DNA from: a virus
Taxonomy: Duplodnaviria > Caudoviricetes
DNA: 54,978 nt
Direction: 5' to 3' (one strand)
Virus record (IMG/VR): IMGVR_UViG_3300048839_001570
Location: 1 to 54,978 of that record
Position 1 is the first letter of the stretch, and each line of letters starts with the position of its first letter. Made by a program: the position numbers and the translations under genes. The notes under the pieces are model-generated. The model was not told where the DNA came from. It did no database searches and saw only the letters and a list, made by a program, of their open reading frames with translations. Shown piece by piece: positions 1,558 to 54,978 of this stretch.

Positions 1558-1591
1558 AGGGGTTAACGCCCGTTCCTGCCGTATTTCCAGC

Positions 1592-1634: not shown

Positions 1635-1656
1635 AACCCCCGGATGTGGGGGTTGG
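1633..1656. other. Hairpin, 9-bp stem
   Basis: CCAACCCCC-GGATGT-GGGGGTTGG; no U-tract. Confidence 0.6.
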
Positions 1657-1701
1657 CGGTGAGGGGTAGGCAAGAATCGATCGCGCTGGCATCGTGTGCC
1701 G

Positions 1702-2613: not shown

Positions 2614-2824
2614 TTGTATCTACCCCGATTGCTCGGAGGCATTGCACAAAGAACACGGCGGAGAACCCGCCGCGTGCCACCTTGTTCCGCAGGTTAACCG
2701 GCGTCTCCTTCAAGCCATGCTCGGCCAGCCTCTCGGCCAACTGGTCATAGGTGATGCCTCGCCGTGTCATTTCTGCGCGAAGGATGCCCTTCACCAGATT
2801 GACCCACTCGTCGTCCGACTTCAT
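2600..2824 (-). CDS. DUF6471-like small HTH protein
   Basis: WVNLVKGILRAEMTRRGITYDQLAERL...NKVARGGFSAVFFVQCLRAIG; GGAGG SD; divergent from transposase. Confidence 0.85.
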   Translation of the reverse strand: MKSDDEWVNLVKGILRAEMTRRGITYDQLAERLAEHGLKETPVNLRNKVARGGFSAVFFVQCLRAIGVDTISLK

Positions 2825-2849
2825 GGTGCGCGCCTCCGCTCCAGTTACG

Positions 2850-2916
2850 TACGCCACCATAATCGTTACGTTTGCCATTGACAACGGCCCGCTACGCCAC
2901 CACATTCGCTACATAA
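2850..2916. promoter_or_regulatory. Divergent promoter region with 22-bp imperfect direct repeats
   Basis: TACGCCACCATAATCGTTACGT (2850-2871) and TACGCCACCACATTCGCTACAT (2893-2914), 18/22 identical; TTGACA(2878)-N17-CACATT(2901). Confidence 0.65.
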
Positions 2917-2933
2917 ATAGCGAAAGCGATGAC

Positions 2934-3896
2934 ATGGCCCAGCACTTCCTCCTTTCCGCCGCAGCCCGGACCCTCAAGCTCCGCGACGTGTACCGCATGT
3001 CCGACGAGCAGGCGTTCGACGCGTTCAAGGCGATCCGCTTTGCGGAGAACGGCGGGGAAGCGTTCTGCCCGGAGTGTGGGTGCTGCGATCCCTACTTCAT
3101 CGCCACGCGCCGCAAGTGGAAGTGCCGCGCCTGCGGCAAGCAGTTCAGCGCCACCAGCGGGACGATATTCGCCTCCCGCAAGATGGCGTTCGTGGACCTG
3201 CTCGCGGCGATCTGCATCTTCACCAACTGCGCCAAGGGCATCTCGGCGCTCCAGCTCTCCCGCGATCTGGATTGCCAGTACAAGACCGCGTTCGTCCTGG
3301 CGCACAAGCTCCGCGAGGCGATGGCGAAGGGCAATGACGACGTGACGCTTTCCGGCACGGTCGAGATCGACGGCGCGTACTTCGGCGGGCACGTCCGCCC
3401 GGAGAACCGCAAGGAAGATCGGAAGGACCGCCGCCTGTCTGAGAACCGCGACCCGGATCGGCGCGTGGTCGTCGTGCTTCGCCAGCGCAAGGGCCGCACC
3501 CTGCCGTTCGTGGTGCCCCGCGAGGCCGAGGGAGCCGCCATCGTCCGCGAGCGCGTCGCTCCCGGCACCGAGCTACATGCGGACGAGGGGCCTCATTGGG
3601 ACGCGCTGGAGGCCCATTACGCAGCCCGGCGGATCAACCACGGCGAGGCGTATAGCTGGGACGGTGCCTGCACCAATCAGGCCGAGAGCTACTTTGCACG
3701 CCTGCGCCGCGCCGTGGTCGGGCAGCACCACCACGTCTCGCACCGCTACCTGCACCAGTACGCGAACGAAGCCGCTTGGCGTGAGGATCACGCCCGCACC
3801 GCCAACGGCACGCAGCACCGGAACGTGCTGACGGCAGCGCTGCACTCGCCGGTCAGCCGCCAGTGGAAGGGATACTGGCAGCGGGCGGCGGCTTAG
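2934..3896 (+). CDS. IS1595-family transposase
   Basis: Starts MAQHFLLS; Zn ribbon CPECG...CRAC; HTH GISALQLSRDL; catalytic-region motifs VEIDGAYFGG, LHADE, NQAESYF, YANEAAWRED. Confidence 0.95.
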   Translation: MAQHFLLSAAARTLKLRDVYRMSDEQAFDAFKAIRFAENGGEAFCPECGCCDPYFIATRRKWKCRACGKQFSATSGTIFASRKMAFVDLLAAICIFTNCAKGISALQLSRDLDCQYKTAFVLAHKLREAMAKGNDDVTLSGTVEIDGAYFGGHVRPENRKEDRKDRRLSENRDPDRRVVVVLRQRKGRTLPFVVPREAEGAAIVRERVAPGTELHADEGPHWDALEAHYAARRINHGEAYSWDGACTNQAESYFARLRRAVVGQHHHVSHRYLHQYANEAAWREDHARTANGTQHRNVLTAALHSPVSRQWKGYWQRAAA

Positions 3897-5455
3897 ACAA
3901 AGCCGACCAAGCGGGGATCGATCATATCACCTTCCTTGGTCTTGATCGTCTGTGAGCCCGCAAATGGAAGCATTAGTTCAAGTTGGTCCTTATCCCGCTT
4001 CCTCGCGGTCCCGCGGAACAAGTGTTCTGGCCGTGGCAATGGGGGCAGATTTGGGAAATGGCCATTTATCAACTCTTCCGCCGTAACAATCTGCACTCGC
4101 GGCATCCGCCCATGCGGGGTTCTTGGAACAAATCCGTAATTGGCAGCATCCGCCTTCATGCCCTTAGTCGGTTCGTTGAGTGTCACAAGTACCCCCATTT
4201 CGGCATTCTCTCTCTCGACCGTTCCCGCCAAATCCCTTACCATCGTGGGACTGAGGTTGTTCCCGCCCTTGACAGAGATAATTATGCGCCCAAGGCCATA
4301 CGGCCCGTTTGAAAAATAAATGTTGGCATCAATTCCTTTGTCTCCTCCTTTCTTGGAGTCGTACGTTTGAGCCCCGAGCTTCCAGGCCGCCCACCACTGG
4401 AACTGATACTTATCTCGTTCTGCAAGAGCGCGTGCCCCGGCCAAGTCGGTTGGGCGTCCATAGATTGAAAACGTCGCGTTTGGTCTTCGACTCTTAAGGC
4501 GGTTTTCGATAACCGAGATGGCATAGTGGGTAATGTCAATTCCGATCCACTGGCGGCTAAGCCTCTCCGCCGCCTCGATTGTTGTTCCACAGCCACAGAA
4601 CGGATCAAATATAACTGCACCTTCAGGCGACGATGCACTAATGATCCTTTCCAATAGTGCCAGAGGTTTCTGAGTTGGATAACCTACTCGCTCCCTAGAC
4701 GAAGAAGAAATGATGGGTATTGGCCACACATCGGAGACAGCTTTACCGCCAGCGATGATTTCTTCCACACGACGCATTTTGTTTTTCGAATTGCCGCGAC
4801 CACCGGGCATCCAAATCCACTCTACACCATCGCCGTCTACGTGAATTTTTTGTTTCCGCGAACGCTGCAGGTCCTCTCTGGTCCACTCAGTCTTAGGCAT
4901 CTTAAAAAATGCATCTTCGCTATTGGCGTAAAAAAGAATAACGTCATGCTTTCTGTTGTAGAACCTCGGGAGATCCATTAGCCTAAATGAATAATCCCAA
5001 ATTATTTCATTTCTAAAGTTTTTTACGCCCCAAATTGCATCAAGAATGATTTTAAGGTAATGGCTTGCTGCTGGATCGCAATGAAGGTAGACGCTGCCTG
5101 TCGGCTTAAGCACTCTCCGAAGTTCTACAAGCCTGACAGCCATCATCGAAAGGTATGCAAGCCGTCCACTGGTGCCAAACCACTTCCGAAAAGACTCCAT
5201 GAGTATGGAAAGGTCTCCCCTCATTCTCATGATATCGTCGTAAGCTTGGGCAGCTGAAGGCCCCCACGTCCAGGTGTCTCGAAACGCTTCGGCCTGTGCC
5301 TCAGAAACAGCTCCTGATTTATCTGAGAAGATCACGCTGTAGTTTGCATTCGAATTGAAGGGGGGGTCGAGGTAGATCAAATCTACGCTCTCGTCCTTGA
5401 TGACGCCTGAAGTGCGGAGAACCGTTAGGTTATCGCCAAAATGCAGACTGTTCAT
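3893..5455 (-). CDS. Beta-class N4/N6 DNA methyltransferase fused to C-terminal Mrr-like PD-(D/E)xK nuclease domain
   Basis: Motif IV YLDPPF precedes motif I DPFCGCGT; YPTQKP; C-terminal GDKGIDA...IIISVKGG. Confidence 0.88.
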   Translation of the reverse strand: MNSLHFGDNLTVLRTSGVIKDESVDLIYLDPPFNSNANYSVIFSDKSGAVSEAQAEAFRDTWTWGPSAAQAYDDIMRMRGDLSILMESFRKWFGTSGRLAYLSMMAVRLVELRRVLKPTGSVYLHCDPAASHYLKIILDAIWGVKNFRNEIIWDYSFRLMDLPRFYNRKHDVILFYANSEDAFFKMPKTEWTREDLQRSRKQKIHVDGDGVEWIWMPGGRGNSKNKMRRVEEIIAGGKAVSDVWPIPIISSSSRERVGYPTQKPLALLERIISASSPEGAVIFDPFCGCGTTIEAAERLSRQWIGIDITHYAISVIENRLKSRRPNATFSIYGRPTDLAGARALAERDKYQFQWWAAWKLGAQTYDSKKGGDKGIDANIYFSNGPYGLGRIIISVKGGNNLSPTMVRDLAGTVERENAEMGVLVTLNEPTKGMKADAANYGFVPRTPHGRMPRVQIVTAEELINGHFPNLPPLPRPEHLFRGTARKRDKDQLELMLPFAGSQTIKTKEGDMIDPRLVGFV

Positions 5456-5485
5456 CGTCGCAAGTCCTCTTTGTCTGCATACGCA

Positions 5486-5510
5486 GAACAGGCGCAGAAC
5501 GGGGTGTCAA
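5486..5510 (-). promoter_or_regulatory. Alphaproteobacterial LexA-type box (GTTC-N7-GTTC) beside a TTGACA -35, upstream of the methyltransferase
   Basis: Minus strand reads TTGACA-CCCC-GTTC-TGCGCCT-GTTC, 30 nt before the ATG at 5455. Confidence 0.65.
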
Positions 5511-5607
5511 GAGAAATTGTAGGATTGCGAAGGCTTTTGGGCAGGTATGGCGATGGTGTTCGTGTACTGGCGCGCGCAATCACGGGTGAGGCGCGGTCTG
5601 CATCCGG

Positions 5608-5790
5608 TCACCGGGCAACCCATGCGCCGCCCTCCCGCCTGACCAGCCCCGCCGTCTCCATACGCCGCAGCGTGACGTTCACGCCCCAGCACACGCGCCT
5701 GAGCGGCTTGTCGGGATAATCGGTCGCAACGTGCCGGGCGATCTCCACGCCCCTGAGCGGTCCGCTCCTGAGCGCTGCGAGGATCTGGCG
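5608..5790 (-). pseudogene. 5'-truncated winged-helix-like ORF
   Basis: RQILAALRSGPLRGVEIARHVA...LRRMETAGLVRREGGAWVAR*; no start codon, begins right after the TAG at 5791-5793. Confidence 0.55.
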
Positions 5791-8778
5791 CTACGGAGCC
5801 AGGGCAATCGTGAACGCGACCCACGTATCCGTCGCCATCGTGCCGAAGGCGGCCGGGTCGTAGGTCGCCACCTCGTCGAACCGCATCGCCGCCGCCACGC
5901 TCGCGCCGCCGGTCCCGGCCGCAACCTGCGGGTAGAAGTCGTAGCAGCCGATTGGCCCGGCGCCCGGGACCGCCGTGCTGTCCGCCCCCATCACCGCGAG
6001 CCAGAGGTACTTCGCGCTGCCGCCCGAGGGCGAGAAGCTGGGGGCGTTGGCGGTCGTGCTCGATCCCGTCGCGGACGTGCTGACCTGGATGGAAGACGCG
6101 CCGTGGAAGCTCATGGCGATGTGCGACGACTGCTCCGAGGCCGAGGTCGTCAGGGTGAGCGTGTCGCCCTCCTCCGCGATCTTCGAGACGATGGTGAGCC
6201 GGTTGTTGGAGCCGTTCGCTGCGCTCGCGTTGATGGTCCAGCCCGAGGAAGACGCCCCGGTGTTGATCGAAACCGTCGCACTGCCGTCGCTGGAGAGCCC
6301 GATTACCATGAGTTCCCCGGGCACGATGAGCGGCAGCGTGATCGGGTGCGACGTGGTGTTCGAGGCCCCGGTGCGCCCGCGCGCCATCTCGCGCAAGCTC
6401 GGGAAGCCGTACATGTTCGGCATCCGCATCCAGCGCGGCTCGACCGTCGAGAAGGTCGTATTCGGCGTGTAGACCGACGGGCCGTCGTCCTCGAAGGCCG
6501 CCGGGTCCGAGACGAAGTAGCCTGGCGCATCCATCCCGCTCAGGTAGCGGTTGTTGATGACGTCGTTCCCGACCGTCGTCTCGTTCCAGTAATCGCTGTC
6601 GCCGTCGTAGAATTCGTGCGAGCTTTCGCAGACCGGGGCGGGCACGCCGAAGCGGTAGTAGTTCGTATCCCCGGTGTGGAAGACGATGTTTTCCTCGACC
6701 AGCACCTCGTCCGCGTTGTCGAGATAGATCTGGATCGAATAGTTATCCCACACGATGTTTTCGCGCGCGGTCGTGCCGGTGGTGGAGAGGATGCCGATCC
6801 CCTCGCCCCAATTCTCGTGCACGAGGTTCTTCTCGATCAGGCTGTCGCCGCGGAAGTCGCCGAAGATGCCCCGGCCCCACCCGCTCTGCCCGACCGCGCC
6901 GGCCGTCCAGTCCGCGTTCCGGTTCTCGACCGTGTTGTGGTGGATCCGGTTGTAGCGGACCGTCCAGCCCGCGCCGCGGGTCTGTCCGCCGCCGGTCGAG
7001 TAGTCCATGGAGAAGGCGCCGTCGAGGAAGTAGCAGAACTCGTTCCCCTCCACGACGAGGTTCTGGGCATTGTCGCCGTAGAAGCCGAAGCGACAGCCGC
7101 CGTCGTCGATGAACTTGAAACCGCGGATTTCGATGTTGTCGGCGGTGCGGAGCTGGAGCATGTCCGCGCCGGTCAGGCTGCGCGCGTCGAACGTCACCTG
7201 TTCGCCCGGGTAGGCGATCACCTTGGTCTTGTTCGATGAGTTGGAGCCCGACCATCCGCTGATCGACTGCGCGCTCGTGTAGGTGCCCTTGCGGACCGCC
7301 ACCACGTCGCCGGCCGAGACGGAGGTTCCCGAGAACGCGGCGTCGCTCGAGACGGTCTTGTTCACCGCGTAGACGCAGACGGGGATCGTCACGCTGTCCG
7401 AGCCGAGCCCGTTTTCGGCCGTGACGGTGATGGTGGTCCAGTCGAAGGCGCTCGTGGTGGGCACCGAGACGACGCCCGTAGACGAGTTGATCGTGATGCC
7501 GGTGGAGCCGACGCCAGAGACGGAGAACTCCAGCTCGTCGCCGTCGAACATCGAGGCCGTGGCGAAGGTCTGCGTGCCCATGCCGGTCACGTAGTAGACC
7601 GCGGGCATGTAGGAGAGGTAGGCCGCGGGCGCCTCGGTCGCGCCGACCTGGTACGGCGTCTGGTTGAACTCGGAAATGTCGAAGGTGCCGTCTGTCGAGA
7701 GCCAATCGCCGCAGGTAATGTTCACGTACATGTCGGTGATCGCGAAGCTGATCGCCGTCGTGCTCGCGTAGTTGGTCCAGTTCTCGCCGTCCGTGGACCA
7801 GTCCATGTAGACCGTCCCGTTGTCCTCGTGGATGCGCTGGTAGGCATGGGTCGCCGGGGCGTAGGTGACGTTCTTGCGGAGCTGCGTGTTGACGCCGCCG
7901 ATCTGGTAGTCCGCAATGAGCGTTCCGTCGTCGATGCCGAAGCGGATGCGGTCGGCGCCGCTCGTGCCCTGCCGCTCTAGCGAGATGATGCCGTTCTTGC
8001 TCTCCAGCGCGTTCGTGCGTGTGAAGCCGAAGCGCCAGGCAACGACCGAGTTGGTCAGGTCCCATGTGCTCACAGCCGAAGCCATGCCGCCGGCATAGTC
8101 GTTCCGGCAGGGAATTTTCGCGATGCCGCCCGAGACGGTGACGGTGCCCGTGTAGCCGCTCGTGCTCCATTTCGCGCCGTCAAGGCTCGAGCCGGGGAAC
8201 AGGTCGGTGAAGTTCTGGAAGGCGTCGGCGGGGATCTCGGGGGCGGCCTCGGCGGAGATCGTGGGCGCCTGCGCCGCGATGGCGAGCGCCGCGGCGGGAA
8301 CCTGTACGCTGCCGCCCGTAGCAACGGCGGGCACGGGAGCGGCTACGGCGAGCGAGGCAACCGGGACCTGTACGCTGCCGCCCGTCGCGATCGCGGGAAG
8401 CGGAGCAGCGATGGCGAGAGCTGCGACCGGAACCTGCGCGCTTGCGCCAGTCGCCACCGCAGGTGACGGAGCGGCAACGGTGAGGGCGGCCGTGGGAACG
8501 GCGATGTCCGCCGGCGCGACGGGCCGGAGAGCGATCACCTGGCCGGTGCCGTCGTCGAACTCATAGTCGACGCCGTTCGTCAGGGCGACGGTAGGCCCCG
8601 TGGACCTGAACCAGTCCGACGAGCCGACCTCCCGGTAGAAGATCGCCCGCGGCTGCACGCCGTCGTCGAACTCGTAGGTCTCGCCGGCGTCGAGCCCGGA
8701 GATCTGGAACGGCGCCTCGCCGACAACCCTCAGCCACGGGCCGGCGCTGCCCTGCACCCGGTAGAAGACACTACGCAT
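5791..8778 (-). CDS. Multidomain putative depolymerase/adhesin (FN3-like stubs, 22-aa repeats, lectin-like, Ig-like, right-handed beta-helix)
   Basis: Beta-helix pattern NLVVEGNEF, WTVRYNRIHHN, SLIEKNLVHENWGEGI, ARENIVWDN; Ig-like GITINSSTGVVSV. Confidence 0.8.
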   Translation of the reverse strand: MRSVFYRVQGSAGPWLRVVGEAPFQISGLDAGETYEFDDGVQPRAIFYREVGSSDWFRSTGPTVALTNGVDYEFDDGTGQVIALRPVAPADIAVPTAALTVAAPSPAVATGASAQVPVAALAIAAPLPAIATGGSVQVPVASLAVAAPVPAVATGGSVQVPAAALAIAAQAPTISAEAAPEIPADAFQNFTDLFPGSSLDGAKWSTSGYTGTVTVSGGIAKIPCRNDYAGGMASAVSTWDLTNSVVAWRFGFTRTNALESKNGIISLERQGTSGADRIRFGIDDGTLIADYQIGGVNTQLRKNVTYAPATHAYQRIHEDNGTVYMDWSTDGENWTNYASTTAISFAITDMYVNITCGDWLSTDGTFDISEFNQTPYQVGATEAPAAYLSYMPAVYYVTGMGTQTFATASMFDGDELEFSVSGVGSTGITINSSTGVVSVPTTSAFDWTTITVTAENGLGSDSVTIPVCVYAVNKTVSSDAAFSGTSVSAGDVVAVRKGTYTSAQSISGWSGSNSSNKTKVIAYPGEQVTFDARSLTGADMLQLRTADNIEIRGFKFIDDGGCRFGFYGDNAQNLVVEGNEFCYFLDGAFSMDYSTGGGQTRGAGWTVRYNRIHHNTVENRNADWTAGAVGQSGWGRGIFGDFRGDSLIEKNLVHENWGEGIGILSTTGTTARENIVWDNYSIQIYLDNADEVLVEENIVFHTGDTNYYRFGVPAPVCESSHEFYDGDSDYWNETTVGNDVINNRYLSGMDAPGYFVSDPAAFEDDGPSVYTPNTTFSTVEPRWMRMPNMYGFPSLREMARGRTGASNTTSHPITLPLIVPGELMVIGLSSDGSATVSINTGASSSGWTINASAANGSNNRLTIVSKIAEEGDTLTLTTSASEQSSHIAMSFHGASSIQVSTSATGSSTTANAPSFSPSGGSAKYLWLAVMGADSTAVPGAGPIGCYDFYPQVAAGTGGASVAAAMRFDEVATYDPAAFGTMATDTWVAFTIALAP
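8251..8505 (-). repeat. Four 22-aa repeats (VPxAxLxxAAPxPAVATGxSV)
   Basis: Seen in translation; 66-nt periodicity. Confidence 0.85.
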
Positions 8779-43934: not shown

Positions 43935-44158
43935 GGGTTTGCCCCCCTCACATGCGCCAGGCCCTCTTCGGTGATCTCCCACAGCGTCGTCTGGCGGCGG
44001 TGGACGATGGGACCGGGCTTGCCGCGGACCAGACCGTGCTGGGCAAGGCGGACGCAGACCTGGGACTGGATCACGCGGCGGGTGACGGGAAGCGGGTGGG
44101 AGACGGCAGCGAGCGCCGTCAGGGCGCGTGATTCGGCGGGGGTCAGGTCGAGCAGCAT
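43931..44158 (-). CDS. Small winged-helix-like protein
   Basis: LTPAESRALTAL...RLAQHGLV...WEITEEG. Confidence 0.6.
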   Translation of the reverse strand: MLLDLTPAESRALTALAAVSHPLPVTRRVIQSQVCVRLAQHGLVRGKPGPIVHRRQTTLWEITEEGLAHVRGANP

Positions 44159-44793
44159 CAGGAAAGCTCCATTAGCAGCTTGCGAACCAGCGTGCGGGCG
44201 TAGTCCTGCCAGTCTCGGGCGACGACGACGAAGGCGAGCGGACCGCGGGAGACGGTCTCGCGGAAATAGGGCTCGTATGCGCCACCTACCGAGATCGCGT
44301 TGACCGTGATGTCGTCGGGAATCGTGATCGCCTCGGGGCGAAGCTCGCGGCGGCCCGAGTTGTCGGGCCCGTCGCCGGAGATGTCGAGCACGCGGCGCGT
44401 GCAGTCGGTGTGCTGGGCGAGCTCGGCCGCACCGAAGGCTATGGCGGCGCCGAGCGCGGTGTGACCGCCTCGAGGCGGACGCGGGGCGGCAAGTACGGCC
44501 GCGGCGATGGCCTCGACATCGGCCAGCGACCGCACCTTGGTCCACGGCACGATCACGACCGGATCCCGGCTCGACCACTCGTAGACGTGGACCCGCGCGC
44601 CGATGAGTCGCTGCCAGACCGCGTCGTGCAGAAGTGCCCTCGCCGTGCCCTCGCGCTGGGCCTTGTGCTCGTCGGCGTCAATCGAATCCGACACGTCGAT
44701 GCCGAGACTGAGAGCCGTGTGGCACGTGGCGGCGGCATGACTGGCGGCGATGAACACGGCCGCGGCGGCGAGGGCAACGGTGCGCACAGCCAT
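44158..44793 (-). CDS. DUF1194-like exported VWA-domain protein
   Basis: Signal peptide; MIDAS IDVSDS, TALGAAI, LDISGDGPDN. Confidence 0.85.
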   Translation of the reverse strand: MAVRTVALAAAAVFIAASHAAATCHTALSLGIDVSDSIDADEHKAQREGTARALLHDAVWQRLIGARVHVYEWSSRDPVVIVPWTKVRSLADVEAIAAAVLAAPRPPRGGHTALGAAIAFGAAELAQHTDCTRRVLDISGDGPDNSGRRELRPEAITIPDDITVNAISVGGAYEPYFRETVSRGPLAFVVVARDWQDYARTLVRKLLMELS

Positions 44794-46589
44794 CACACCA
44801 GGTCCCTCGCATCAGGCGGCAGGGGCGCGGGATCGCCGCCACGCTTGCCGCCCTGCCCCTCACGGCCTCGCCACTCCGAAAGCCGGGCCGCCATGGCATC
44901 GGTGAGGCGCAGGCCACCGTAGCCGTTCGCCGTGGCCGACTTCCGCGGCGTGAAGGTCGCGCCGTCGACGCGGAACACGTTGGCCTTCTCGGAAAGGCGC
45001 AGCTGGATCGAGCGGTTGCCCCACGGCTGTCCGCCCTGGTCGCGCTGGTAGACCTGGAACGCCTCGACCAGGTCGCGCGAGAGCACGAAGTCGGCCGCGT
45101 CGCCGGTGATCTTGCAGGCATCGAGCAGGAACGTGCGGACCGGGTCGGAATCGTCGCGAAACTGCTCCGTGGCCTGCAGCACGCCTTCGGGCTCTCGCAG
45201 GCCCCCGGCGAGGAAGTCGAGCGTCCCAGCGAGGAGCCAGTTCAGCACGCCCGACCGCTCCTCCCAGAGCTTCTGGGGCAGGAGCGGATCGACCGCGTCC
45301 TTCGGGATCTGCTGATCGAACGGCACGAGGAGAATGCGCCGCCAGATCCCGTCATCGGTGCCCCGCACGTTCGGCTTGTGGTTGCCCGAGATCGTCAGCT
45401 TGAACACCGGCTCGATCTCGACGAACTCCTCCCGCATCTTGCGGATCAGGATGGGCTCGCCGCCGGTCAGGAGCTTGATGATCGCTTCCTTGAAGCGCAG
45501 GCCCTCCTCCGGCTCCGAGGCGCGCACCATGCGCGCGCCGGGCACGCGCACGAGGTCCGGGGTGGCATCCGAGCCCTTGCGCTGTTCCGTGCCGGTCAGC
45601 GTCTCGATCGGCAGGCTTGTCGCGTACTCGCCCATCATGCGGGCGATGAGATCGACCAGGGTGGACTTCCCGTTCCGGCCCGTGCCGTGGAAGAACACCA
45701 GCTTCTGCTCGGACGTGAGCCCCGTGAGCGTGTAGCCGAACCACCGCTGCAGGAACGCCCGCATGGCCGGGTCCGGCTGGATGTCGGCGAGGAAGCGGTC
45801 GAAGGTCGGACAGGTGGCGGCAGGATCGTACACCACCGGCATGGACTTGGTGATGAGGTCCTCGCGAACCTGCTCACGCGTCGTGACCGCGTAGACCCGC
45901 CGGGGCCCCTCCTCGGCCGACCATGCGTCGAGATCGTCCTCGGCGGTCGCCTCGACCAGCTCGAGCGTCACCTCGGCCGTGTTGATCACCATGGGCGCGC
46001 GGTTGAGGTCCGCGAGGGTGCGCTCGCGATAAGGCTCGGCTTCCTTGAGCATGTTGGTGATCGGACCGGTATTGCCCGCGCTCTTCGCGTGCCGCAGGTG
46101 CTTCGCCCGCTTGTCGGCCAGGCGCTTGCGGATGTCGGCCGCGGCATCGTGAAGCTCGATCAGCCGGCGCAGCTCGACCTTGTCGTCCTCGGTAGGGTCC
46201 TTCTTGACCCGCAGCCGGTTGAGGAAGGTGCGGCTCTCCTCCGCTGCCTGGACGATGCCGGCCTCTTCCGGATCGTATCCGAGTTCGAAGGCTTCGCGCT
46301 TGATGAAGTGGCTGATGCGGTGCGCGCGGCGGCGCACGGCCATGCCGTCGAAGTCCTGCGCCCAGCGGTGGCCGTCCCAGGCGAACCACCCCATGCGCGG
46401 CACGAACATCAGGTCGTCGCCGTGGTAGATCACCACCCGCTGGCCGTTCCCGAAATCGTTGAGCGGCAGCGCACCTGCCTTGCGCAGGGTCTCCCGGACG
46501 CCCGATTCCTCGTCAGGCGGCGGGCCCTCGCCGGAGTAGTCGCGCGCCGCGGCGATCTCGTCTTCGTTCAAGGCCTTGTCCCAGTTCAT
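44793..46589 (-). CDS. P4/D5-family SF3 helicase (D5_N plus helicase, no primase domain seen)
   Basis: NDFGNGQR, WFAWDGHRW, Walker A GTGRNGKST, ASE, NHKP, GIWRRI. Confidence 0.92.
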   Translation of the reverse strand: MNWDKALNEDEIAAARDYSGEGPPPDEESGVRETLRKAGALPLNDFGNGQRVVIYHGDDLMFVPRMGWFAWDGHRWAQDFDGMAVRRRAHRISHFIKREAFELGYDPEEAGIVQAAEESRTFLNRLRVKKDPTEDDKVELRRLIELHDAAADIRKRLADKRAKHLRHAKSAGNTGPITNMLKEAEPYRERTLADLNRAPMVINTAEVTLELVEATAEDDLDAWSAEEGPRRVYAVTTREQVREDLITKSMPVVYDPAATCPTFDRFLADIQPDPAMRAFLQRWFGYTLTGLTSEQKLVFFHGTGRNGKSTLVDLIARMMGEYATSLPIETLTGTEQRKGSDATPDLVRVPGARMVRASEPEEGLRFKEAIIKLLTGGEPILIRKMREEFVEIEPVFKLTISGNHKPNVRGTDDGIWRRILLVPFDQQIPKDAVDPLLPQKLWEERSGVLNWLLAGTLDFLAGGLREPEGVLQATEQFRDDSDPVRTFLLDACKITGDAADFVLSRDLVEAFQVYQRDQGGQPWGNRSIQLRLSEKANVFRVDGATFTPRKSATANGYGGLRLTDAMAARLSEWRGREGQGGKRGGDPAPLPPDARDLV

Positions 46590-48339: not shown

Positions 48340-49167
48340 TCAGGCCGCGACGGAGGCGGCGTCGGCCGCCCGCGTCTTGAGGCGGATGAGCAGCTGGCGC
48401 TGCTGGTTCAGGCCCTTCTCCGGGAGCAGCTCGTTCCAGCGCTCGAGCGCGAACTCCCGGGTGATCGAGAGCCGGTTGCAGGCGAGCGGCAGGCCGCTCT
48501 CGATGATCGACCGCGCCAGCTCGTAGTCGCGCTCCGGCGTCCAGAACCCTGCCTTCGGCTCTACGGCGTCCTGCACGGCGGCGGGAGCAGGGGTGTCGAG
48601 CACAGGCTCGACAGGGGGTGCGGCTTCAGGCTCCGCCGCGCCGTCCCCAATGAGATAAGGGGCAAGCGCCTGCTCAGACCACGCCTCGATCTGCACCGGC
48701 TCCGGATCGACCGCGGGTTCCGGCGCGTCGGCCGATTCCGCCACGTCCGGCTCCGGCGCGCGATGCGGCGCGAACGCGCCCATGGCCCGGCGATGCGCCA
48801 TCACCTTGCCCTGGAGCCGCTGCGGCTTGATCCCGGCCGCGCGGGCCACGTCCCGCACCCGCGCGCCGCAGTCCACCACCTGGGCGACGAGGGCGGGCCA
48901 GTCCGGCTCTGGCTCGAGTTCGGCCAGGCCTGCATCCTCGCAAGTGCCGGCCGGAGAGGCAGGCGACGGCGATCGCTCCTCCCCGGCCGGCGCCGACGGT
49001 GACCCCGCCGCCGGCTGCTCTGCCGGGGAGGAGGAAGCGGGGACCTCCGCGCACACGGGCATCGGTGCGGGCGCCTCGCCGCTGCTCTCGTAGGCATCGA
49101 GCAGCGCACGGAGCGCCACGCGGGTGAACGGCTGCGACAGGTCCAGGCGAAGGCTGATCTCGGTCAT
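48340..49167 (-). CDS. Hypothetical protein with HTH-like segments
   Basis: VRDVARAAGIKPQRLQG; WTPERDYEL. Confidence 0.6.
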   Translation of the reverse strand: MTEISLRLDLSQPFTRVALRALLDAYESSGEAPAPMPVCAEVPASSSPAEQPAAGSPSAPAGEERSPSPASPAGTCEDAGLAELEPEPDWPALVAQVVDCGARVRDVARAAGIKPQRLQGKVMAHRRAMGAFAPHRAPEPDVAESADAPEPAVDPEPVQIEAWSEQALAPYLIGDGAAEPEAAPPVEPVLDTPAPAAVQDAVEPKAGFWTPERDYELARSIIESGLPLACNRLSITREFALERWNELLPEKGLNQQRQLLIRLKTRAADAASVAA

Positions 49168-49661
49168 TCCCGCACCTGCTCCATGAAATAGCCGAAGCCC
49201 CGCACGTTCCGGATCCGGAAGCCCATGCGCTTCTCGGCGAGCTTGGCGTTGAGGCGGCAGACGATCACGTTGACCATCTTCTGCTGCGCCCACGAGTCCG
49301 GCACCCGGCGCCAGCTGACGACCGCGATGAGGCCGTCGTAGCTGATCGGGGACGGCATCCGCCGGTGCAGCGCGAACAGGATCGCGCCCTCCTGCGGCCT
49401 CAGGCTGATCCCGCGCTCGAGGAGAAGCCGCGACACCGCCGCCGGCAGCGTCGTGATCTGCTCGAGCGCGAAGACCAGGTGCTCGACCTGCTCCTCGAGC
49501 GGCAGGTGCGCGATCTCTTCCCGGAAGGACGGCCGGGACGGACGAGGGGGTGCAAGGGGGGGGGTGGGTGCTGCCCGCCCGGCCCGGCCGCCCATCGGGG
49601 AAGAGACGACCCCCGCGCCGCGGGGGCGCGGGGAAATGGCGCAGGGCAGGCGCGGCGTCAC
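49164..49661 (-). CDS. OmpR/PhoB-type winged-helix protein lacking a receiver domain
   Basis: LRPQEGAILFAL...KMVNVIVCRLNAKL...IRNVRGFGY; start uncertain. Confidence 0.75.
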   Translation of the reverse strand: MTPRLPCAISPRPRGAGVVSSPMGGRAGRAAPTPPLAPPRPSRPSFREEIAHLPLEEQVEHLVFALEQITTLPAAVSRLLLERGISLRPQEGAILFALHRRMPSPISYDGLIAVVSWRRVPDSWAQQKMVNVIVCRLNAKLAEKRMGFRIRNVRGFGYFMEQVRE

Positions 49662-49963
49662 GCCCTGCCCTTCTCGATCGCGGTGAGCGCGAGCGCCGCG
49701 CGCGCGACCAGGACCGTCTTGACGTTGAGGCCCGCCTCCATCAACGCCCGCGGCCAGGTCGCCCAGCCCGGCGCGTCCCACGCCTCGACCACGGCCTCGG
49801 CCGCAGCCACGAGCGGCAGCATGTCCGGCACCCGGCGGGCCCGGGGCGTGACGTGCCGGAGCATCTCGACCAACGGCTCGCGCGTCGCGTGGTCGCCGAT
49901 CTCCGGCATGGCGAGCGCGGCCAGCAGGTTAATCACCGCAGTGTCGGCGTAGGTGTAGGCCAT
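49658..49963 (-). CDS. Hypothetical protein
   Basis: MAYTYADTAV; coupled. Confidence 0.55.
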   Translation of the reverse strand: MAYTYADTAVINLLAALAMPEIGDHATREPLVEMLRHVTPRARRVPDMLPLVAAAEAVVEAWDAPGWATWPRALMEAGLNVKTVLVARAALALTAIEKGRA

Positions 49964-50433: not shown

Positions 50434-50667
50434 TTACGCCGCGAGCAGGAGCTTCGACCGCAGGGGCGGCGCCAGCCGCCGATCCCGCAGGACGCCCACC
50501 AGGTACGGCATGCGCGGCAGGGTGGACCGGTTCAGCCAGTGCACCGCGGTGCCGTAGTCGCAGCCGAAGGTATCCATGATCTGGCCGGTCGAGCGGAAGT
50601 TCTCCTCCAGGAACGACGACCACATGATTCTCAAGGCAATTTCTTCGGAAGAAGTTCTGTAAGACAT
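50434..50667 (-). CDS. Small HTH-like protein in CII position
   Basis: WSSFLEENF...IMDTFGCDYGTAVHWL. Confidence 0.6.
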   Translation of the reverse strand: MSYRTSSEEIALRIMWSSFLEENFRSTGQIMDTFGCDYGTAVHWLNRSTLPRMPYLVGVLRDRRLAPPLRSKLLLAA

Positions 50668-50811
50668 TCCAGTGACCCCCATGCTTCAATGCATTTGCTC
50701 GGGCCCTGAACTGAGTAGCTGGTGCACACGGTGCTTCTTGTGATTGGGTCGGGCAGGCGCGGGCGGACGGGTGGGGCCGCCCGCGCCACTTCAGGGGACG
50801 GCGGAGCGCGG

Positions 50812-51027
50812 TCACGCGGCGGCTCCCTGCGACGAGAACCATACCGACGCCGGAACACGGCCAGCTGTGGCCGCGTCGATCTTCCTAATCGTCTCGCGAC
50901 CCGGCTGCTTGGTCCCGTCCAGTATCTCCAGAAGGTACCGTCGCGAGATGCCAATCCTCTCGGCCACATCCGCCTTCGACGCGGAAGGCATCTCGGCATC
51001 GATCCATTGCTTGAGGGTCATCGGCAT
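50812..51027 (-). CDS. Cro-like XRE HTH regulator
   Basis: SKADVAERIGISRRYLLEILDGTKQPG...TAGRVP; divergent from repressor. Confidence 0.85.
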   Translation of the reverse strand: MPMTLKQWIDAEMPSASKADVAERIGISRRYLLEILDGTKQPGRETIRKIDAATAGRVPASVWFSSQGAAA

Positions 51028-51035
51028 GCGGGTTG

Positions 51036-51087
51036 TGTCGCACATAGCGACGGCATCCGTCAAGACGGATTGTCGCCATTTTCGACA
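51036..51087. promoter_or_regulatory. Two 17-bp operators plus TTGACG -35 for the cro transcript
   Basis: TGTCGCACATAGCGACG (51036-51052), TGTCGCCATTTTCGACA (51071-51087); palindrome ATCCGTC-AA-GACGGAT between them. Confidence 0.8.
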
Positions 51088-51122
51088 ACGCGGTTCGAGG
51101 CGGTGCGATAGAAACTTGGTTG

Positions 51123-51419
51123 ATGGGTGTGCGCATAAGAGAGTTCCGAGAGGCACAGGGGCTGAGCCAACAGGCCTTGGCACACAAGGCCGGTGTATCC
51201 CGGAGCTATCTGGCCGAGATGGAAAGCGGCGCGAAAGCGATCAACTCGCGCCGGCTCAAGGCGGTCGCCAACGCGCTAGGCGTCTCGGAGTCCGACCTGT
51301 TCATTGAGGATGCAGACCAGGCAAACCGCTTGGCGGAGCTCGTCGCTATTGCTCGCTCTGCTTCGGCCGAGGATCTTGACCAGATTCTCGGAGTGGCGAG
51401 GTTGACCTCCCGGAAGTAA
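51123..51419 (+). CDS. CI-like XRE repressor without S24 peptidase domain
   Basis: IREFREAQGLSQQALAHKAGVSRSYLAEMESG...ANALGV; only 98 aa. Confidence 0.88.
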   Translation: MGVRIREFREAQGLSQQALAHKAGVSRSYLAEMESGAKAINSRRLKAVANALGVSESDLFIEDADQANRLAELVAIARSASAEDLDQILGVARLTSRK

Positions 51420-51504
51420 TCTGACGCGCGGCGACGACCAGCGCTTCAAGGTCATCAGGGCTCAGCCGACGCGCGAGGGCGACCAGTTCGCTTAGCTTGG
51501 ACAT
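51346..51504 (-). CDS. 52-aa protein resembling the repressor C-terminus (putative antirepressor)
   Basis: GGAG SD; SKLSELVALARRLSPDDLEALVVAAR aligns ungapped to repressor NRLAELVAIARSASAEDLDQILGVAR. Confidence 0.7.
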   Translation of the reverse strand: MSKLSELVALARRLSPDDLEALVVAARQITSGRSTSPLRESGQDPRPKQSEQ

Positions 51505-51599
51505 TCGCTCCACCCCTATACGATTTGACAACCATGGGATGCATAGCCGGCCGCGTCGCGAAGCGGCGCGGCGGCAGAAGTTACGCAGTTAATCCGCGC

Positions 51600-51651
51600 T
51601 GTCGCTATTCGCGACAAAAGGCTTGCGCGATCTGTCGCTATGTGCGACAAT
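51600..51651 (+). promoter_or_regulatory. Two 17-bp operators overlapping promoter TTGCGC-N17-GACAAT
   Basis: TGTCGCTATTCGCGACA (51600-51616), TGTCGCTATGTGCGACA (51633-51649). Confidence 0.82.
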
Positions 51652-51689
51652 CCTCTCCCGAGGGGTGACCCCCTACAGGAGAAACCGAC

Positions 51690-52160
51690 ATGCTACGCAT
51701 CACCGCCGCCGCGCTCGTCGCGGCGATCAGCTTCGCCTTGCCCGCTGCGGCCTGCGTCTCGTCCGGGACGTGCAACGGCCTGCCCGGATGGGCTGCGAAC
51801 GAGTTCGCGCAGTCCGACAACTTCGCGACGGAGCGCGCCCTGACCGAGCGTTACGACGCCGCCCGCGCAGCGCACGGCCGCGCGTCGATCAACCTGCAGC
51901 GCCATCTCGACAGCCTGCCCTACGGCCCGCCCACGCCGGCGCAGTCGGCGCGCACCAAGCAGCTGACCGCCCTCAAGAACCAGGCGGCGCGGCGGCTGAA
52001 CGATGCGCACAACCTGCTGCTCGGCTCGAAGTCGGCGGCGGCGACCCGCAACCTGACGCCCAAGCAGCGGGTCGCGTTCAACGCCGGGTTCTACAGCGCC
52101 GACGATCCCCGGTGCACGGGCGGCTGCACCATCAGCGAGATCAACCGCTGGAATTCCTGA
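51690..52160 (+). CDS. Exported hypothetical protein
   Basis: AGGAG SD; signal peptide; Cys pairs at both ends. Confidence 0.75.
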   Translation: MLRITAAALVAAISFALPAAACVSSGTCNGLPGWAANEFAQSDNFATERALTERYDAARAAHGRASINLQRHLDSLPYGPPTPAQSARTKQLTALKNQAARRLNDAHNLLLGSKSAAATRNLTPKQRVAFNAGFYSADDPRCTGGCTISEINRWNS

Positions 52161-52225
52161 TCGCCGTTCTGCGCCTCTCCGGGGGAGGGGAGGCGCAGCG
52201 CCGTGATCAGCAGGAGACCGCTCCC

Positions 52226-52393
52226 ATGGCCGCACCACCCATCGCCCGAGCCGTCGAAATCGCCGCCGCCGCCGCGCTTGTCGTCACGCTGCTAGCGCTC
52301 GGCCTCGCCACTCTGCGGGAGACGACCTTCCGGGCCGCCCAGTGCGAGGCCCGCGGGCCCGAGGCCTGCACTCTCATCCTCGGCGGCGGCTGA
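52226..52393 (+). CDS. Small membrane protein
   Basis: AGGAG SD; TM IAAAAALVVTLLALGLA. Confidence 0.55.
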   Translation: MAAPPIARAVEIAAAAALVVTLLALGLATLRETTFRAAQCEARGPEACTLILGGG

Positions 52394-52442
52394 CGCCGCG
52401 ATCGATATCTCACCTCCACTGCCAACGAAAGGAACCCGAACG

Positions 52443-52820
52443 ATGAACGGACTGCACCGCCCCGCCCCGGCCGCGATCGCCATGGCCCTTGTCCTGTCGG
52501 CCTGCGCCCAGCGGCCCGACCAGATCGCGGCCGACTACGTGCCGCCGAGCCGCTACGCCGCGGCGAGCTGCGCCGACATCCGCGACGACACCAACACGGC
52601 CGTCCTGCGGCTCAACGAGCTGAGCGGCGCCCAGGATGCCAAGGCGACCTCAGACGCGGTCCTGACCGGCGTTGGCCTCATCCTGTTCTGGCCCGCCCTC
52701 TTCGCCACGTCGGGCACCCTCGGCGCCGACGACCACGCCGGCGAGATCGCCGCGCTCAAGGGGGAAGTCAGCGCGCTGCAGACCGCCTGGATCGCCAACG
52801 GCTGCGCGGGAGGGGCGTGA
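52443..52820 (+). CDS. Lipoprotein
   Basis: LVLSAC lipobox; YVPPSRYAAASC; GVGLILFWPALF; IAALKGE. Confidence 0.8.
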   Translation: MNGLHRPAPAAIAMALVLSACAQRPDQIAADYVPPSRYAAASCADIRDDTNTAVLRLNELSGAQDAKATSDAVLTGVGLILFWPALFATSGTLGADDHAGEIAALKGEVSALQTAWIANGCAGGA

Positions 52821-52821
52821 C

Positions 52822-53121
52822 ATGGCGCTCGACCTCAATGGCGTCCGCGTCCTCGACCACGCCTCTCCCGCCGTGGCGAGCGCGCTCCGCCTCGCGCTGC
52901 CGATCCTCACCGAGACGGCCGAGTCCCTGATCGAGACCAACTGCTGCCACGATACCGACGGCGCGCCGCGGCCCGGCAGCCTTGAGCCGGACGCCCTCGA
53001 ACCGGTGGAGGACATGCTGGCCGCGATCCGGGCCGGCGTCGCCGTCCTCGGCGAGGGCGCGATCCACCACGACGCGCGGGACTGGTTCCGCGAGGTCGTG
53101 CGCGGGGCCCGCGCGCTGTGA
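52822..53121 (+). CDS. Hypothetical protein
   Basis: GGAGG SD; coupled. Confidence 0.55.
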   Translation: MALDLNGVRVLDHASPAVASALRLALPILTETAESLIETNCCHDTDGAPRPGSLEPDALEPVEDMLAAIRAGVAVLGEGAIHHDARDWFREVVRGARAL

Positions 53122-53363
53122 TCACCCTCACTCTCACCGAGGACGACGCGGTCGCCGTGGCGACGACGCTGGAGGACGTCGCCACGCAACGCCGCGATCG
53201 GGCCGAGCGGCAGCGCCAGCGCAACCTGCTCCACGCCATCAGCGCCGCCGAGGCGTGTGAGCTCGACCGCATCGCCGTCCTGGTCAGGACGGCGATCGCC
53301 GACCACTACCTGCACCAGCAGCAGGTGCTCGACGGCGCCCGCATGGGCGGGGGCGCATCGTGA
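53118..53363 (+). CDS. Hypothetical protein
   Basis: GTGA coupling. Confidence 0.55.
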   Translation: MITLTLTEDDAVAVATTLEDVATQRRDRAERQRQRNLLHAISAAEACELDRIAVLVRTAIADHYLHQQQVLDGARMGGGAS

Positions 53364-53671
53364 CGACGCGGTGCATCACCTGCCAGGGCCACCCGCCGAG
53401 CGCGCTCGAGCAGGCGACCTTCGAGGCCCTGACTTGGGCGACCGCGCGCAACCGCGGCGCCCGCGCCCTCATCGGCGGCACCGAGCCGATGACCTGGTTG
53501 GCCGAGTCGTGCCACCTCGTCGGCGCCTTCGAGGGCGGCGGGCGCGCCGTCGCCACGATCCTTCCCCACGGCCAGCGCCTGTCGATCTCGGTGCAGGACA
53601 ATCCCGACATCCGCTGGGCGATGGACCTCGCCCTCCCGCAGGAGCTCCGCGTCGATGTCTGCCCGGACTAG
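53360..53671 (+). CDS. Hypothetical protein
   Basis: GTGA coupling. Confidence 0.5.
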   Translation: MTTRCITCQGHPPSALEQATFEALTWATARNRGARALIGGTEPMTWLAESCHLVGAFEGGGRAVATILPHGQRLSISVQDNPDIRWAMDLALPQELRVDVCPD

Positions 53672-54364
53672 ACCACCCCGCCCCGCGGGTCCGGTGGTGA
53701 TCCCGCCCCGCATCGCCGTCGCCCTGATGCTGATGGGTCAGGGGCGCGGCTCGACGGGCTCGGGGATGGACGAACCGCTGCCCACCGTGGTCGCCGGCAG
53801 CTACGTCAAACGGCCGGGCGGTGCGATCCCGCTGGGCATGGTCGCCGCCTTCCTCGCCCAGCACAACAACCACCGCGGCGCCGAGCCCTCCGATGGGCGG
53901 GACGTGGCACAGCCCCTCTCGTCGCTGACCACGAAGGGCGCGCAGCAGCAGGTGGTGATCGCCACGCTCGGGCGAGCGGAGGCCGAGGGCGCACGGCGGG
54001 TGGCAGCGTTCCTTCTGAAATATTATGGCACCGATCAGGATCCACGCCTCGACGAGCGATGCACACGGACACCACGAAGGACCGCTTCGGGCTCGTCACG
54101 GTCGAGATCGAGGGCGAGAGCTACGCCATCATCGACATCGGCATGCGCATGCTGACGCCCCGCGAGCGCTTCACGGCGCAGGGCTTCCCGCCCGAGTACC
54201 AGATTGAGACCGGCGTGGGGCAGAACGGCGAGCCGGTCTCAATGACGAGCGAGGTGCAGGGCCGGTGCTGCGGCAACAGCGTGTGTCCGCCGCTCGCCGC
54301 CGCCCTGGTGGCCGCGAACTGCGGCGATCTTGCCGCTCGCCCCATGGTCCACGCGGCTGAGTAG
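53655..54364 (+). pseudogene. C-terminal remnant of a phage C5 cytosine methyltransferase, frameshifted
   Basis: DEPLPTV/AAFLLKYYG repeats, RMLTPRE..AQGFP, motif X GNSVCPP; motifs I/IV/VI absent; frameshift near 54057. Confidence 0.8.
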
Positions 54365-54368
54365 AGTG

Positions 54369-54500
54369 ATGAGCGAGGCGCGGAAAGAGAAGGAACATCA
54401 GCACGACCCGCTGCGCCCGGCGCGCGGAGTTGCCCTGGGCGTCTTCCTCGGCAGCTGCCTTTGGGCCGCTGGCATCGGCGCATGGTGGTTGCTCGGATGA
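54369..54500 (+). CDS. 43-aa membrane peptide
   Basis: DPLRPARGVALGVFLGSCLWAAGIG; ATGA overlap with xis. Confidence 0.5.
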   Translation: MSEARKEKEHQHDPLRPARGVALGVFLGSCLWAAGIGAWWLLG

Positions 54501-54871
54501 AGGATGAACACGCCCCGGAGTCGCGCTTGCTGACCGTCGAGGAAGCCGCGAAGGCGCTGCACGCGACGGTGAAGGTCTCGGCGATCCGCGCGGCGATCCG
54601 CGAGGGCAGGCTGGCCTCGGTGCGGATCGGGCGCCGATACTACGTGACGCCCGAGGCTCTGAGGAGATTCGCGAAATGCCGCGTCGTCGAAAGCCGCCCC
54701 GCCTGTGGTGTCGACCCGACACCGGAGACTGGATCATCCTCGACGGAGGCCGCCAGCACCGGACGGGCGCTCGCGGAGCAGGCGGCGAGGATGCTGCGCG
54801 CCAGGCGCTCGCCACCTACCTCATCGGGAGCCAGCCGGCCCGCGTCGGCCCTGCCCAGCCGCACGAGATAA
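54497..54871 (+). CDS. Excisionase-like HTH protein
   Basis: LLTVEEAAKAL...IRAAIREGRLASVRIGRRYYV. Confidence 0.85.
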   Translation: MKDEHAPESRLLTVEEAAKALHATVKVSAIRAAIREGRLASVRIGRRYYVTPEALRRFAKCRVVESRPACGVDPTPETGSSSTEAASTGRALAEQAARMLRARRSPPTSSGASRPASALPSRTR

Positions 54872-54978
54872 CCGTGGGCGAGGTGCTGGCGCTCTACGCG
54901 CGCGACCATGGGCACCTCGCCGGCGCGGAGACCCTCTCCTACTGCATCGACGCGCTCTCTCCGTTCTGGGGCGATCTC
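54676..54978 (+). CDS. Tyrosine integrase N-terminus (3' truncated by window)
   Basis: GAGGAG SD; MPRRRKPPRLW...WIILDG...ITVGEVLALY...LSPFWG; follows xis; catalytic residues outside window. Confidence 0.75.
   Translation, partial: MPRRRKPPRLWCRPDTGDWIILDGGRQHRTGARGAGGEDAARQALATYLIGSQPARVGPAQPHEITVGEVLALYARDHGHLAGAETLSYCIDALSPFWGDL

Follow-up and report, generated by a model that had tools for sequence, protein, structure and literature searches.

The system closest to the locus reported here is AimX-AimC-AimL of Bacillus arbitrium phages, for which phi106, BMBtp14, Wbeta and Waukesha92 are given as extended arbitrium phages (preprint 10.1101/2025.11.23.689978; PDB 9sf2). According to that preprint, most Bacillus arbitrium phages encode AimX, a protein of 29-80 amino acids (aa), downstream of aimR-aimP, and the aimX gene is convergent with aimC and at times overlaps it. 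The product of aimC is a helix-turn-helix (HTH) repressor of 80-140 aa without an autocleavage domain, and a cro-like gene, aimL, lies divergently. AimX binds the C-terminal domain of AimC, AimC dimers or tetramers are turned into heterodimers, and operator binding is abolished; the authors liken the pair to SinI-SinR (preprint 10.1101/2025.11.23.689978). SinI antagonises SinR by forming a heterodimer that abolishes DNA binding (PMC3163267). Here we describe a phage repressor gene and a convergent small open reading frame (ORF) whose predicted product copies the C-terminal helices of that repressor. They were found in IMG/VR virus record IMGVR_UViG_3300048839_001570 (Duplodnaviria; Caudoviricetes). 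The whole record, 54,978 nucleotides (nt) long, was analysed and is called the window below; positions are those of the window unless another locus is named. The two genes and their relevant parts are:

51123..51419, plus strand: prophage repressor gene, 98 aa, ATG at 51123; XRE HTH at residues 5-59, then two C-terminal helices (64-79 and 82-97)
51324..51401, plus strand: repressor segment copied by the peptide, encoding residues 68-93, the two-helix segment
51346..51504, minus strand: convergent small ORF, 52 aa, ATG at 51504 and stop at 51346; predicted two-helix hairpin (3-12 and 16-31) and disordered tail
51424..51501, minus strand: mimic-helix segment of the small ORF, entirely outside the repressor gene
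51346..51419, both strands: antisense overlap of 74 nt, which on the peptide side covers only the low-confidence tail
51508..51516, minus strand: Shine-Dalgarno-like purine run of GGAG type, read from the sequence, ending 3 nt before the small-ORF ATG

These positions bear out the preliminary description of the locus, which was made from the letters alone and had reported a 98-aa repressor, a convergent 52-aa ORF with its own Shine-Dalgarno run, two similar segments encoded by different nucleotides and a 74-nt antisense overlap. It had gone on to propose a SinR/SinI-like mimic of a non-cleavable repressor. That proposal is strengthened by profile, fold, domain homology, recurrence in other phages and the AimX-AimC analogue, while complex prediction adds weak support. 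We consider it probable, at roughly 60%, that the 52-aa protein is a dominant-negative antirepressor of the SinI/AimX kind. The best available reading of the locus is an arbitrium-independent, sequence-homologous and convergent version of the SinI/AimX principle, which occurs in this alphaproteobacterial prophage and recurs in no fewer than four further lineages.

This reading rests first on the relation between the peptide and the repressor tail. Sequence comparison identifies the small-ORF product as a true homologue of the repressor family's C-terminal domain. A single BLASTP comparison (E 7e-6) paired repressor residues 68-93 with peptide residues 2-27; 12/26 positions are identical and 20/26 positive, and this is the ungapped copy that had been noticed at the outset. 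Likeness by chance is excluded. None of 5000 peptide shuffles reached the observed Smith-Waterman score of 59 (mean 24.6, maximum 50), and when the repressor tail was compared with 806 open frames of the window of at least 30 aa, the small ORF scored 61 and the other non-self frames 41 or less. A hidden Markov model (HMM) of the C-terminal domain, built from 17 other family members with the window's own row excluded, was scanned against the 963 frames (102,741 residues) of the six-frame window. It gave 26.4 bits to the small ORF (E 2e-7), 34.8 bits to the repressor and 8.1 bits to the next frame. The small ORF starts exactly at the domain boundary, and no remnant of an HTH was found upstream of it in any frame.

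At the DNA level, the two segments in register share 36/78 bases (13, 17 and 6 of 26 at the first, second and third codon positions), and a repeat finder detected no inverted repeat in register between them. Thus, the likeness exists at the protein level only. The preliminary description had suggested an origin by inverted duplication, and this stays plausible; there is, however, no repeat in the DNA, and the peptide is closer to the tails of two relatives in its repressor's own subfamily, P0020 (score 71) and P0010 (64), than to that of its own repressor (59). A local duplication long ago would fit these sequences as well as acquisition from a relative would. AlphaFold2, run on the single peptide sequence, predicts the two helices listed above, with a predicted local distance difference test (pLDDT) of 90-95 over residues 1-30 and 43-65 over the tail. 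Foldseek with this model returned no match at E up to 0.001, and the best score in the ESM Atlas, 0.80, is a lead only.

The repressor carries Pfam HTH_3 at residues 5-59 (E 2.3e-17). In the Pfam search at E up to 0.1 it matched HTH families only and no S24 peptidase domain, as the first description had said. A lambda CI/LexA-type autocleaving repressor was set aside on the length of 98 aa and the S24 domain not being found. The ImmR-ImmA/DdrO-IrrE type was also set aside: the neighbours of the repressor are a cro-like gene and the small ORF, and no COG2856/M78-type metalloprotease domain was detected in the 50 window ORFs scanned against Pfam, a distant copy being possible as the record is an estimated 64% complete. 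An exhaustive HMMER search with the repressor found mostly multi-HTH proteins, together with a set of proteins of about 100 aa that aligned over the full length (P0010 at 67%, P0020 at 56-57% and about 15 others at 38-49%). P0010 and P0020, the closest relatives, come from short metagenome contigs. In this family, the C-terminal 35-40 residues are conserved as two helices. The AlphaFold2 model of the repressor, computed from the family alignment, places helices 64-79 and 82-97 after a five-helix HTH (mean pLDDT 92.8; C-terminal helices 81-95). By profile, the best PDB match of the family (18 members) is SinR, 1b0n_A, with E 6.4e-15 over profile positions 3-75, the HTH part only. SinR 1b0n_A is also the top Foldseek match of the model (E 3.8e-5, 100 aligned columns, template modelling score 0.57), and the phi106 repressor-AimX complex, 9sf2_A, stands at rank 49 of that list. 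By profile and by model, the repressor has the architecture of SinR. Single-protein scans for relatives of the repressor gave HTH-only matches, and a metagenome scan gave two HTH-only loci. A word-index search with the repressor found three proteins, one of them an identical fragment. This fragment, P0001, is a 66-aa protein identical to repressor residues 33-98 and comes from a separate 943-bp contig in the protein collection, so that the same or a near-identical phage has been sampled elsewhere.

In AimX-AimC-AimL as here, a short XRE repressor without autocleavage (80-140 aa there, 98 aa here) is accompanied by a divergent cro-like HTH gene, after which replication genes follow, and a small ORF is convergent with the repressor gene (29-80 aa there; 52 aa with a 74-nt overlap here). 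The small protein targets the helical C-terminal oligomerisation domain there and is predicted to do so here, and in both cases it diverges faster than the repressor, judged here from the orthologous loci L262 and L413 (see below). The systems differ in what lies upstream of the small ORF, where the window has two repressor-type operators instead of aimR-aimP. No plausible minus-strand gene was seen right of 51504 (no ORF with coding-like GC content at third codon positions, GC3, and no family matches), and aimR/aimP-type genes were likewise not found upstream of the small ORFs of the loci L289 and L262. The host is alphaproteobacterial here and Bacillus there. The peptide of the window is a sequence homologue of the repressor's own domain, whereas the preprint describes structural occupation of the partner site. 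The C-terminal fold is also different, AimC of BMBtp14 having two helices and a beta-hairpin (preprint 10.1101/2025.11.23.689978). AimC and the repressor family of the window align in their HTH parts only.

With SinI-SinR, the locus shares an XRE HTH followed by a two-helix C-terminal domain, which serves oligomerisation there and probably does so here, and a partner of similar size (about 55 aa there, 52 aa here) that is homologous to this domain. SinI-SinR is a chromosomal biofilm switch of Bacillus subtilis and not a phage switch. The sinI gene lies upstream of sinR in the same direction and is driven by Spo0A, whereas the two genes here are convergent and overlap by 74 nt. The Pfam SinI-domain family matched neither the repressor nor the peptide at E up to 0.1.

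The second line of evidence is that the arrangement recurs. From the fetched loci, 111 HTH proteins with tails of 28-75 aa were taken, and the tail of each was compared with the convergent strand just past its own stop; 1319 non-cognate comparisons served as the null, with a 99.9th percentile of 39.7. Besides the window (61), the loci L289 (56), L295 (53), L297 (47) and L262 (45) lie above this percentile, and L257 scores 49 once overlap into its long repressor tail is allowed. Convergent ORFs that resemble, in sequence, the tail of their own repressor are present in at least four other lineages, namely L257, L262 (to which L413 is orthologous), L297 and the 16 viral contigs that make up the L289 group. 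Three further loci, L310 (42), L158 (39) and L272 (35), were rejected because their cognate scores fall inside the antisense overlap and are artefacts of self-complementarity. The positives have a common geometry, in which the mimic segment begins about 90 nt past the repressor stop on the opposite strand and runs towards or into the repressor gene, and a cro-like HTH gene diverges from the repressor wherever the flank is available. Each of the five peptides gives its highest or near-highest score against its own repressor clade. When the five lineages are pooled, nucleotide identity by codon position is 70, 76 and 32 of 126; the third positions are about random, and the likeness is kept at the protein level. 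L413 carries an intact orthologue of the L262 peptide (E 1.4e-7; 45% identity across 44 aa), whose resemblance to the repressor tail has faded (score 22), which indicates that the peptide evolves faster than the repressor. The preliminary description had named convergent pairs beside repressor homologues as something to look for. They exist in four other lineages, each peptide being like its own repressor, but most members of the family carry no recognisable mimic.

One set of related loci is:

L273, L277, L278, L284, L285, L287-L295, L298 and L299 (the L289 group): in L289, the small ORF occupies L289:1599-1766 and the repressor gene, on the minus strand, L289:1696-2016

In this group, the peptide is 98-100% identical in 16/16 related viral loci, whereas their repressors are 58-100% identical. 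The helical core of the peptide has four synonymous and no non-synonymous variable sites. Variable sites number 9/168 in the ORF and 27/100 in the adjoining tail-coding part, and they are near-saturated in the HTH part by a fixed-offset count that insertions and deletions may inflate. It was also observed in these 16 contigs that the small ORF and the tail-coding part of the repressor gene form a conserved block, while the HTH part is swapped or strongly diverged. Recombination thus seems to have its boundary within the repressor gene, where the DNA-binding domain gives way to the pairing domain.

The third line of evidence concerns the predicted operators. The palindrome TGTCGC-N5-GCGACA with at most one mismatch has four matches in 55 kb, all of them at 51036-51649. 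The sites and the genes that they flank are:

50812..51027, minus strand: cro-like small HTH gene, divergent from the repressor; Pfam HTH_3 (E 8.4e-5), a weak YdaS match, and PHROG transcriptional repressor/regulator families
51036..51052, both strands: operator-like site O1, a 17-bp palindrome with one mismatch, between the cro-like gene and the repressor
51071..51087, both strands: operator-like site O2, one mismatch, 35 bp from O1
51600..51616, both strands: putative operator O3, a perfect palindrome, 96 nt upstream of the small-ORF ATG (minus strand)
51623..51651, plus strand: candidate rightward promoter for the 51690 operon, TTGCGC-17-GACAAT, 7/12 consensus positions
51633..51649, both strands: putative operator O4, a perfect palindrome, 33 bp from O3, within the spacer and the -10 of the candidate rightward promoter
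51690..52160, plus strand: first gene of the rightward operon, 156 aa, signal-peptide-like N-terminus, no family match

O1 is the exact reverse complement of O4 (16/16 bases). Because the operators are palindromic, a dimeric binder is implied. Weak candidate promoters on the minus strand overlap O3 (7/12 consensus positions) and are the sole candidates on that strand. A scan of viral contigs gave 0 matches to the operator pair. A viral contig, L264, and Sulfitobacter phage pCB2047-A (L432) have the half-sites of the window, TGTCG-N7-CGACA, at the same places: one site upstream of the repressor and a pair 181-226 nt past the repressor stop, with a spacing of 33-34 bp. In both, a promoter-like element, TTGACA-17-GACAnT, can be read from the sequence over the distal site. 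The window and these two relatives also share a spacer of about 180 nt with a convergent open frame entering the 3′ end of the repressor gene (52 codons in the window, 78 in L264:2703-2939 and 59 in L432:1711-1890). The similarity of the L264 and pCB2047-A frames, from phages of lower GC content, to the C-terminal domain is not significant. Sharing of the cro-side operators with the peptide side was seen in the window and its two operator-sharing relatives only, and not in L257, L262 or L289. Thus, control of the small gene by the repressor is not general to the module.

Several observations were made beside these sites. About 13 nt next to O3 are nearly identical (12/13 bases) between window 51576-51592 and L264 at about 2965-2985, and were not seen in pCB2047-A; the stretch could belong to a promoter, or a different regulator of the small gene could bind there. 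In Sulfitobacter phage pCB2047-A, an unannotated gap of 264 nt follows the annotated CI-like repressor, and in Paracoccus phage vB_PkoS_Pkon1 an unannotated gap of 173 nt does the same. Each gap holds a convergent open frame (L432:1711-1890 and within L433:1643-1897) with a Shine-Dalgarno-like run, and the frame ends inside the repressor gene; pCB2047-A also has the operator type of the window at the same three positions. No LexA-type box was found in 51420-51690 with at most one mismatch to the alphaproteobacterial or the gamma-type consensus; on this point too the preliminary description was right.

From these findings, a mechanism can be proposed that would be the same as that of SinI on SinR and of AimX on AimC. 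The 98-aa repressor would dimerise through its C-terminal two-helix hairpin and, as a dimer, occupy the 17-bp palindromes. The peptide, as a free copy of this hairpin, would pair with the hairpin of the repressor in place of the second subunit, and the heterodimer could no longer hold the palindromic operators because it would have only one DNA-binding domain. The leftward operon headed by the cro-like gene and the rightward operon would then be derepressed without RecA-dependent cleavage. The peptide transcript would be antisense to the last 74 nt of the repressor gene, and convergent transcription may add to the effect. Since O3 and O4 lie just upstream of the small gene, its promoter may be under repressor control; if so, the peptide would act as a positive-feedback latch at the protein level and not as the first sensor of a trigger.

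A complex of the two proteins, one of the checks named with the original proposal, was predicted with repressor residues 58-98 and peptide residues 1-36. The heterodimer passed with a score of 0.60, the best of three controls reaching 0.01; at least 94% of contacts are common to the runs, and partner pLDDT is at least 82. The mark used is reached by 58/80 solved complexes and by 2/110 mismatched pairs. The pass may be due in part to likeness to solved complexes of the SinR-SinI type.

A number of points weigh against the antirepressor interpretation. Scores of 0.60 or less were given by just 7 of those 80 solved complexes and by both passing mismatches. At the score of the predicted complex, a pass is wrong more often than it is right if the pairing was not already likely beforehand, and the complex lends weak support. 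Dimerisation of the repressor through the hairpin is inferred. Expression of the small ORF is a prediction from sequence; GC3 of its non-overlapping part is 0.68 against 0.85-0.95 in typical genes of the record (0.73 in the repressor itself), and the spacing of 3 nt between the Shine-Dalgarno-like run and the ATG is short. A standard promoter and terminator scan found none in 50600-51900, and the relaxed candidates match only 7/12 consensus positions. An orthologue of the window's peptide was found neither by the word-index search nor by the viral-contig scan (152 pattern stretches, none related). The convergent frames of the two cultured phages are not significant matches to the domain: against its HMM, Pkon1 gives E 2.5 and pCB2047-A no hit, and their Smith-Waterman scores are below 28. 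Within the family, a recognisable mimic (above the 99th percentile of the null, with the three artefacts excluded) accompanies 7/49 family-like members, namely the window, L257, L262, L297 and three near-identical L289-type loci, and most show none. Another 18 members from Rhodobacterales all score below 38, and L256 and L258, among the nearer relatives of the window, lack a mimic.

One alternative accepts that the peptide binds the hairpin but not that it is an antagonist. Its role could then be to stabilise the repressor or to cap it, to adjust the cooperativity of O1/O2 with O3/O4, to protect the repressor against a protease of the host or an antirepressor of foreign origin, or to act on repressors of related co-resident prophages instead of its own. 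All the binding evidence is also compatible with such roles, and as the peptide fits the tails of relatives slightly better than its own, cross-reactivity is conceivable. However, a one-domain hairpin cannot bridge two DNA-binding domains, and both experimentally studied free copies or mimics of an XRE oligomerisation domain, SinI (PMC3163267) and AimX (preprint 10.1101/2025.11.23.689978), are antagonists. A role of this kind is thus unlikely, and antagonism by heterodimer formation is the preferred reading of the binding evidence.

Another alternative is that the small ORF is a non-functional relic, left either by an inverted partial duplication of the repressor 3′ end or by past recombination with a heteroimmune relative, which stays open because the DNA is rich in GC and makes no protein. 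Spurious open frames are common at about 70% GC, the peptide has no detected orthologue, and its being nearer to the tails of two relatives (71 and 64) than to its own repressor (59) is what recombination would leave; the pattern at third codon positions could also reflect past selection on full-length ancestors. What speaks against decay is that the ATG and its Shine-Dalgarno-like run coincide exactly with the domain boundary, that no remnant of an HTH precedes them, and that the convergent arrangement occurs with intact frames in at least four other lineages, two of them lower in GC, including the orthologous pair L262/L413 and the peptide conserved in 16/16 loci. Convergent ORFs of at least 50 codons across the repressor stop were also counted in 48/65 family-like members, where the same strand in other parts of the loci would lead one to expect 28.5, a background that mixes coding and non-coding DNA and makes the control imperfect and the excess suggestive only. 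We regard a relic as quite improbable, and the small ORF is likely to be a real gene.

An RNA-level device, in which a minus-strand antisense RNA or interference by convergent transcription acts on the repressor gene, the reading frame having at most a secondary part or being there incidentally, would suit the 74-nt overlap with the repressor 3′ end, the conservation of convergent overlap in other lineages and the established antisense control in phage switches (lambda oop, P22 sar and the convergent promoters of coliphage 186), but it has little probability as an RNA-only function, because this would not preserve an amino-acid pattern, encoded outside the overlap, with about random third positions (32/126), and Rfam has 0 matches in the region. 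The RNA and protein modes are not mutually exclusive, and the protein antirepressor could have an antisense component.

The surroundings are best explained as an immunity region, that of a temperate phage of lambda-like type which has integrated into a Rhodobacterales-like host. The record is linear. Host genes occupy its left end, and the record is accordingly a prophage with its left junction: positions 80-3896 hold a TatC fragment and a DUF815 ATPase, together with an IS1595-type transposase, and a stretch of low GC content follows (4001-6000; 0.55 against about 0.70). The best relatives of the ATPase are from Rhodobacterales (Amaricoccus macauensis, 72%). A lambda-like gene set occupies the minus strand between about 5.8 kb and 51 kb, namely tail fibre, amidase, GpJ-like tip, tail tube, head decoration, major capsid, portal, large terminase and primase; the closest isolated relative of the large terminase is that of Sinorhizobium phage phi2LM21 (36%). 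The repressor and the small ORF sit at the right end of this block. The cro-like gene heads a leftward early operon that continues on the same strand to the replication and structural genes, with primase, terminase, portal and capsid further left. Within this operon, the stretches 49164-49781 and 44158-44796 hold an OmpR-type winged-helix ORF (Trans_reg_C, E 6.9e-6) and a DUF1194/VWA-domain protein, an unusual cargo between replication and packaging genes. To the right, every plausible gene in 51690-54978 is on the plus strand. The ORFs at 51690-52160 and 52443-52820 may have surface or exclusion functions and not be classical early genes. A 101-aa ORF at 54059-54364 matches C-5 cytosine DNA methyltransferases in their C-terminal part only (PHROG E 2.3e-31; Pfam positions 270-319 of 324) and may be a fragment or have a mis-set start. 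No integrase was seen among the window ORFs scanned, and the immunity-region DNA had no match in the phage collection searched.

Other antirepressors reportedly inactivate non-cleavable repressors without proteolysis, such as the small proteins of Vibrio plasmid-like phages, the LexA-controlled Gifsy-type antirepressors and MOR of TP901-1 and phi13. To our knowledge, none of these is a paralogue of the oligomerisation domain of its repressor. They are said to be encoded elsewhere or divergently and to be driven by LexA, quorum-sensing or other regulators; unlike the Gifsy-type genes, the small ORF of the window has no LexA box that was found near it. A full-text literature search, which covered material outside subscription journals and supplements, found no description of the convergent self-mimic arrangement outside arbitrium systems.

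A wider generalisation can be put forward tentatively. Convergent self-mimic mini-genes may be widespread, arbitrium-independent phage antirepressors, paralogues of the hairpin of their own repressor that are encoded across its stop codon and co-inherited with the hairpin while the DNA-binding domain is swapped. In this phage, such a gene would stand under the distal operators of the repressor and form a bistable latch that replaces RecA-dependent cleavage, and AimX of Bacillus would be one branch that has gained a signalling input. The reach of such genes would extend from alphaproteobacterial prophages to gut-type viral contigs, and they would lie unannotated in cultured phages.

Many temperate phages have short XRE repressors that lack a cleavage domain, and the induction of such prophages is for the most part poorly understood. 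If the antirepressor reading is true, the answer would often be hidden in an unannotated stretch of 150-270 nt that directly follows the repressor gene, and antirepressors could be recognised by a simple sequence rule, the repressor's tail being repeated on the opposite strand. Two tractable cultured phages have this layout: Sulfitobacter phage pCB2047-A, whose operators are also of the window's type, and Paracoccus phage vB_PkoS_Pkon1. The AimX/SinI principle would then extend beyond Bacillus and beyond peptide signalling, and the locus would show how a regulator evolves its own antagonist from a piece of itself.

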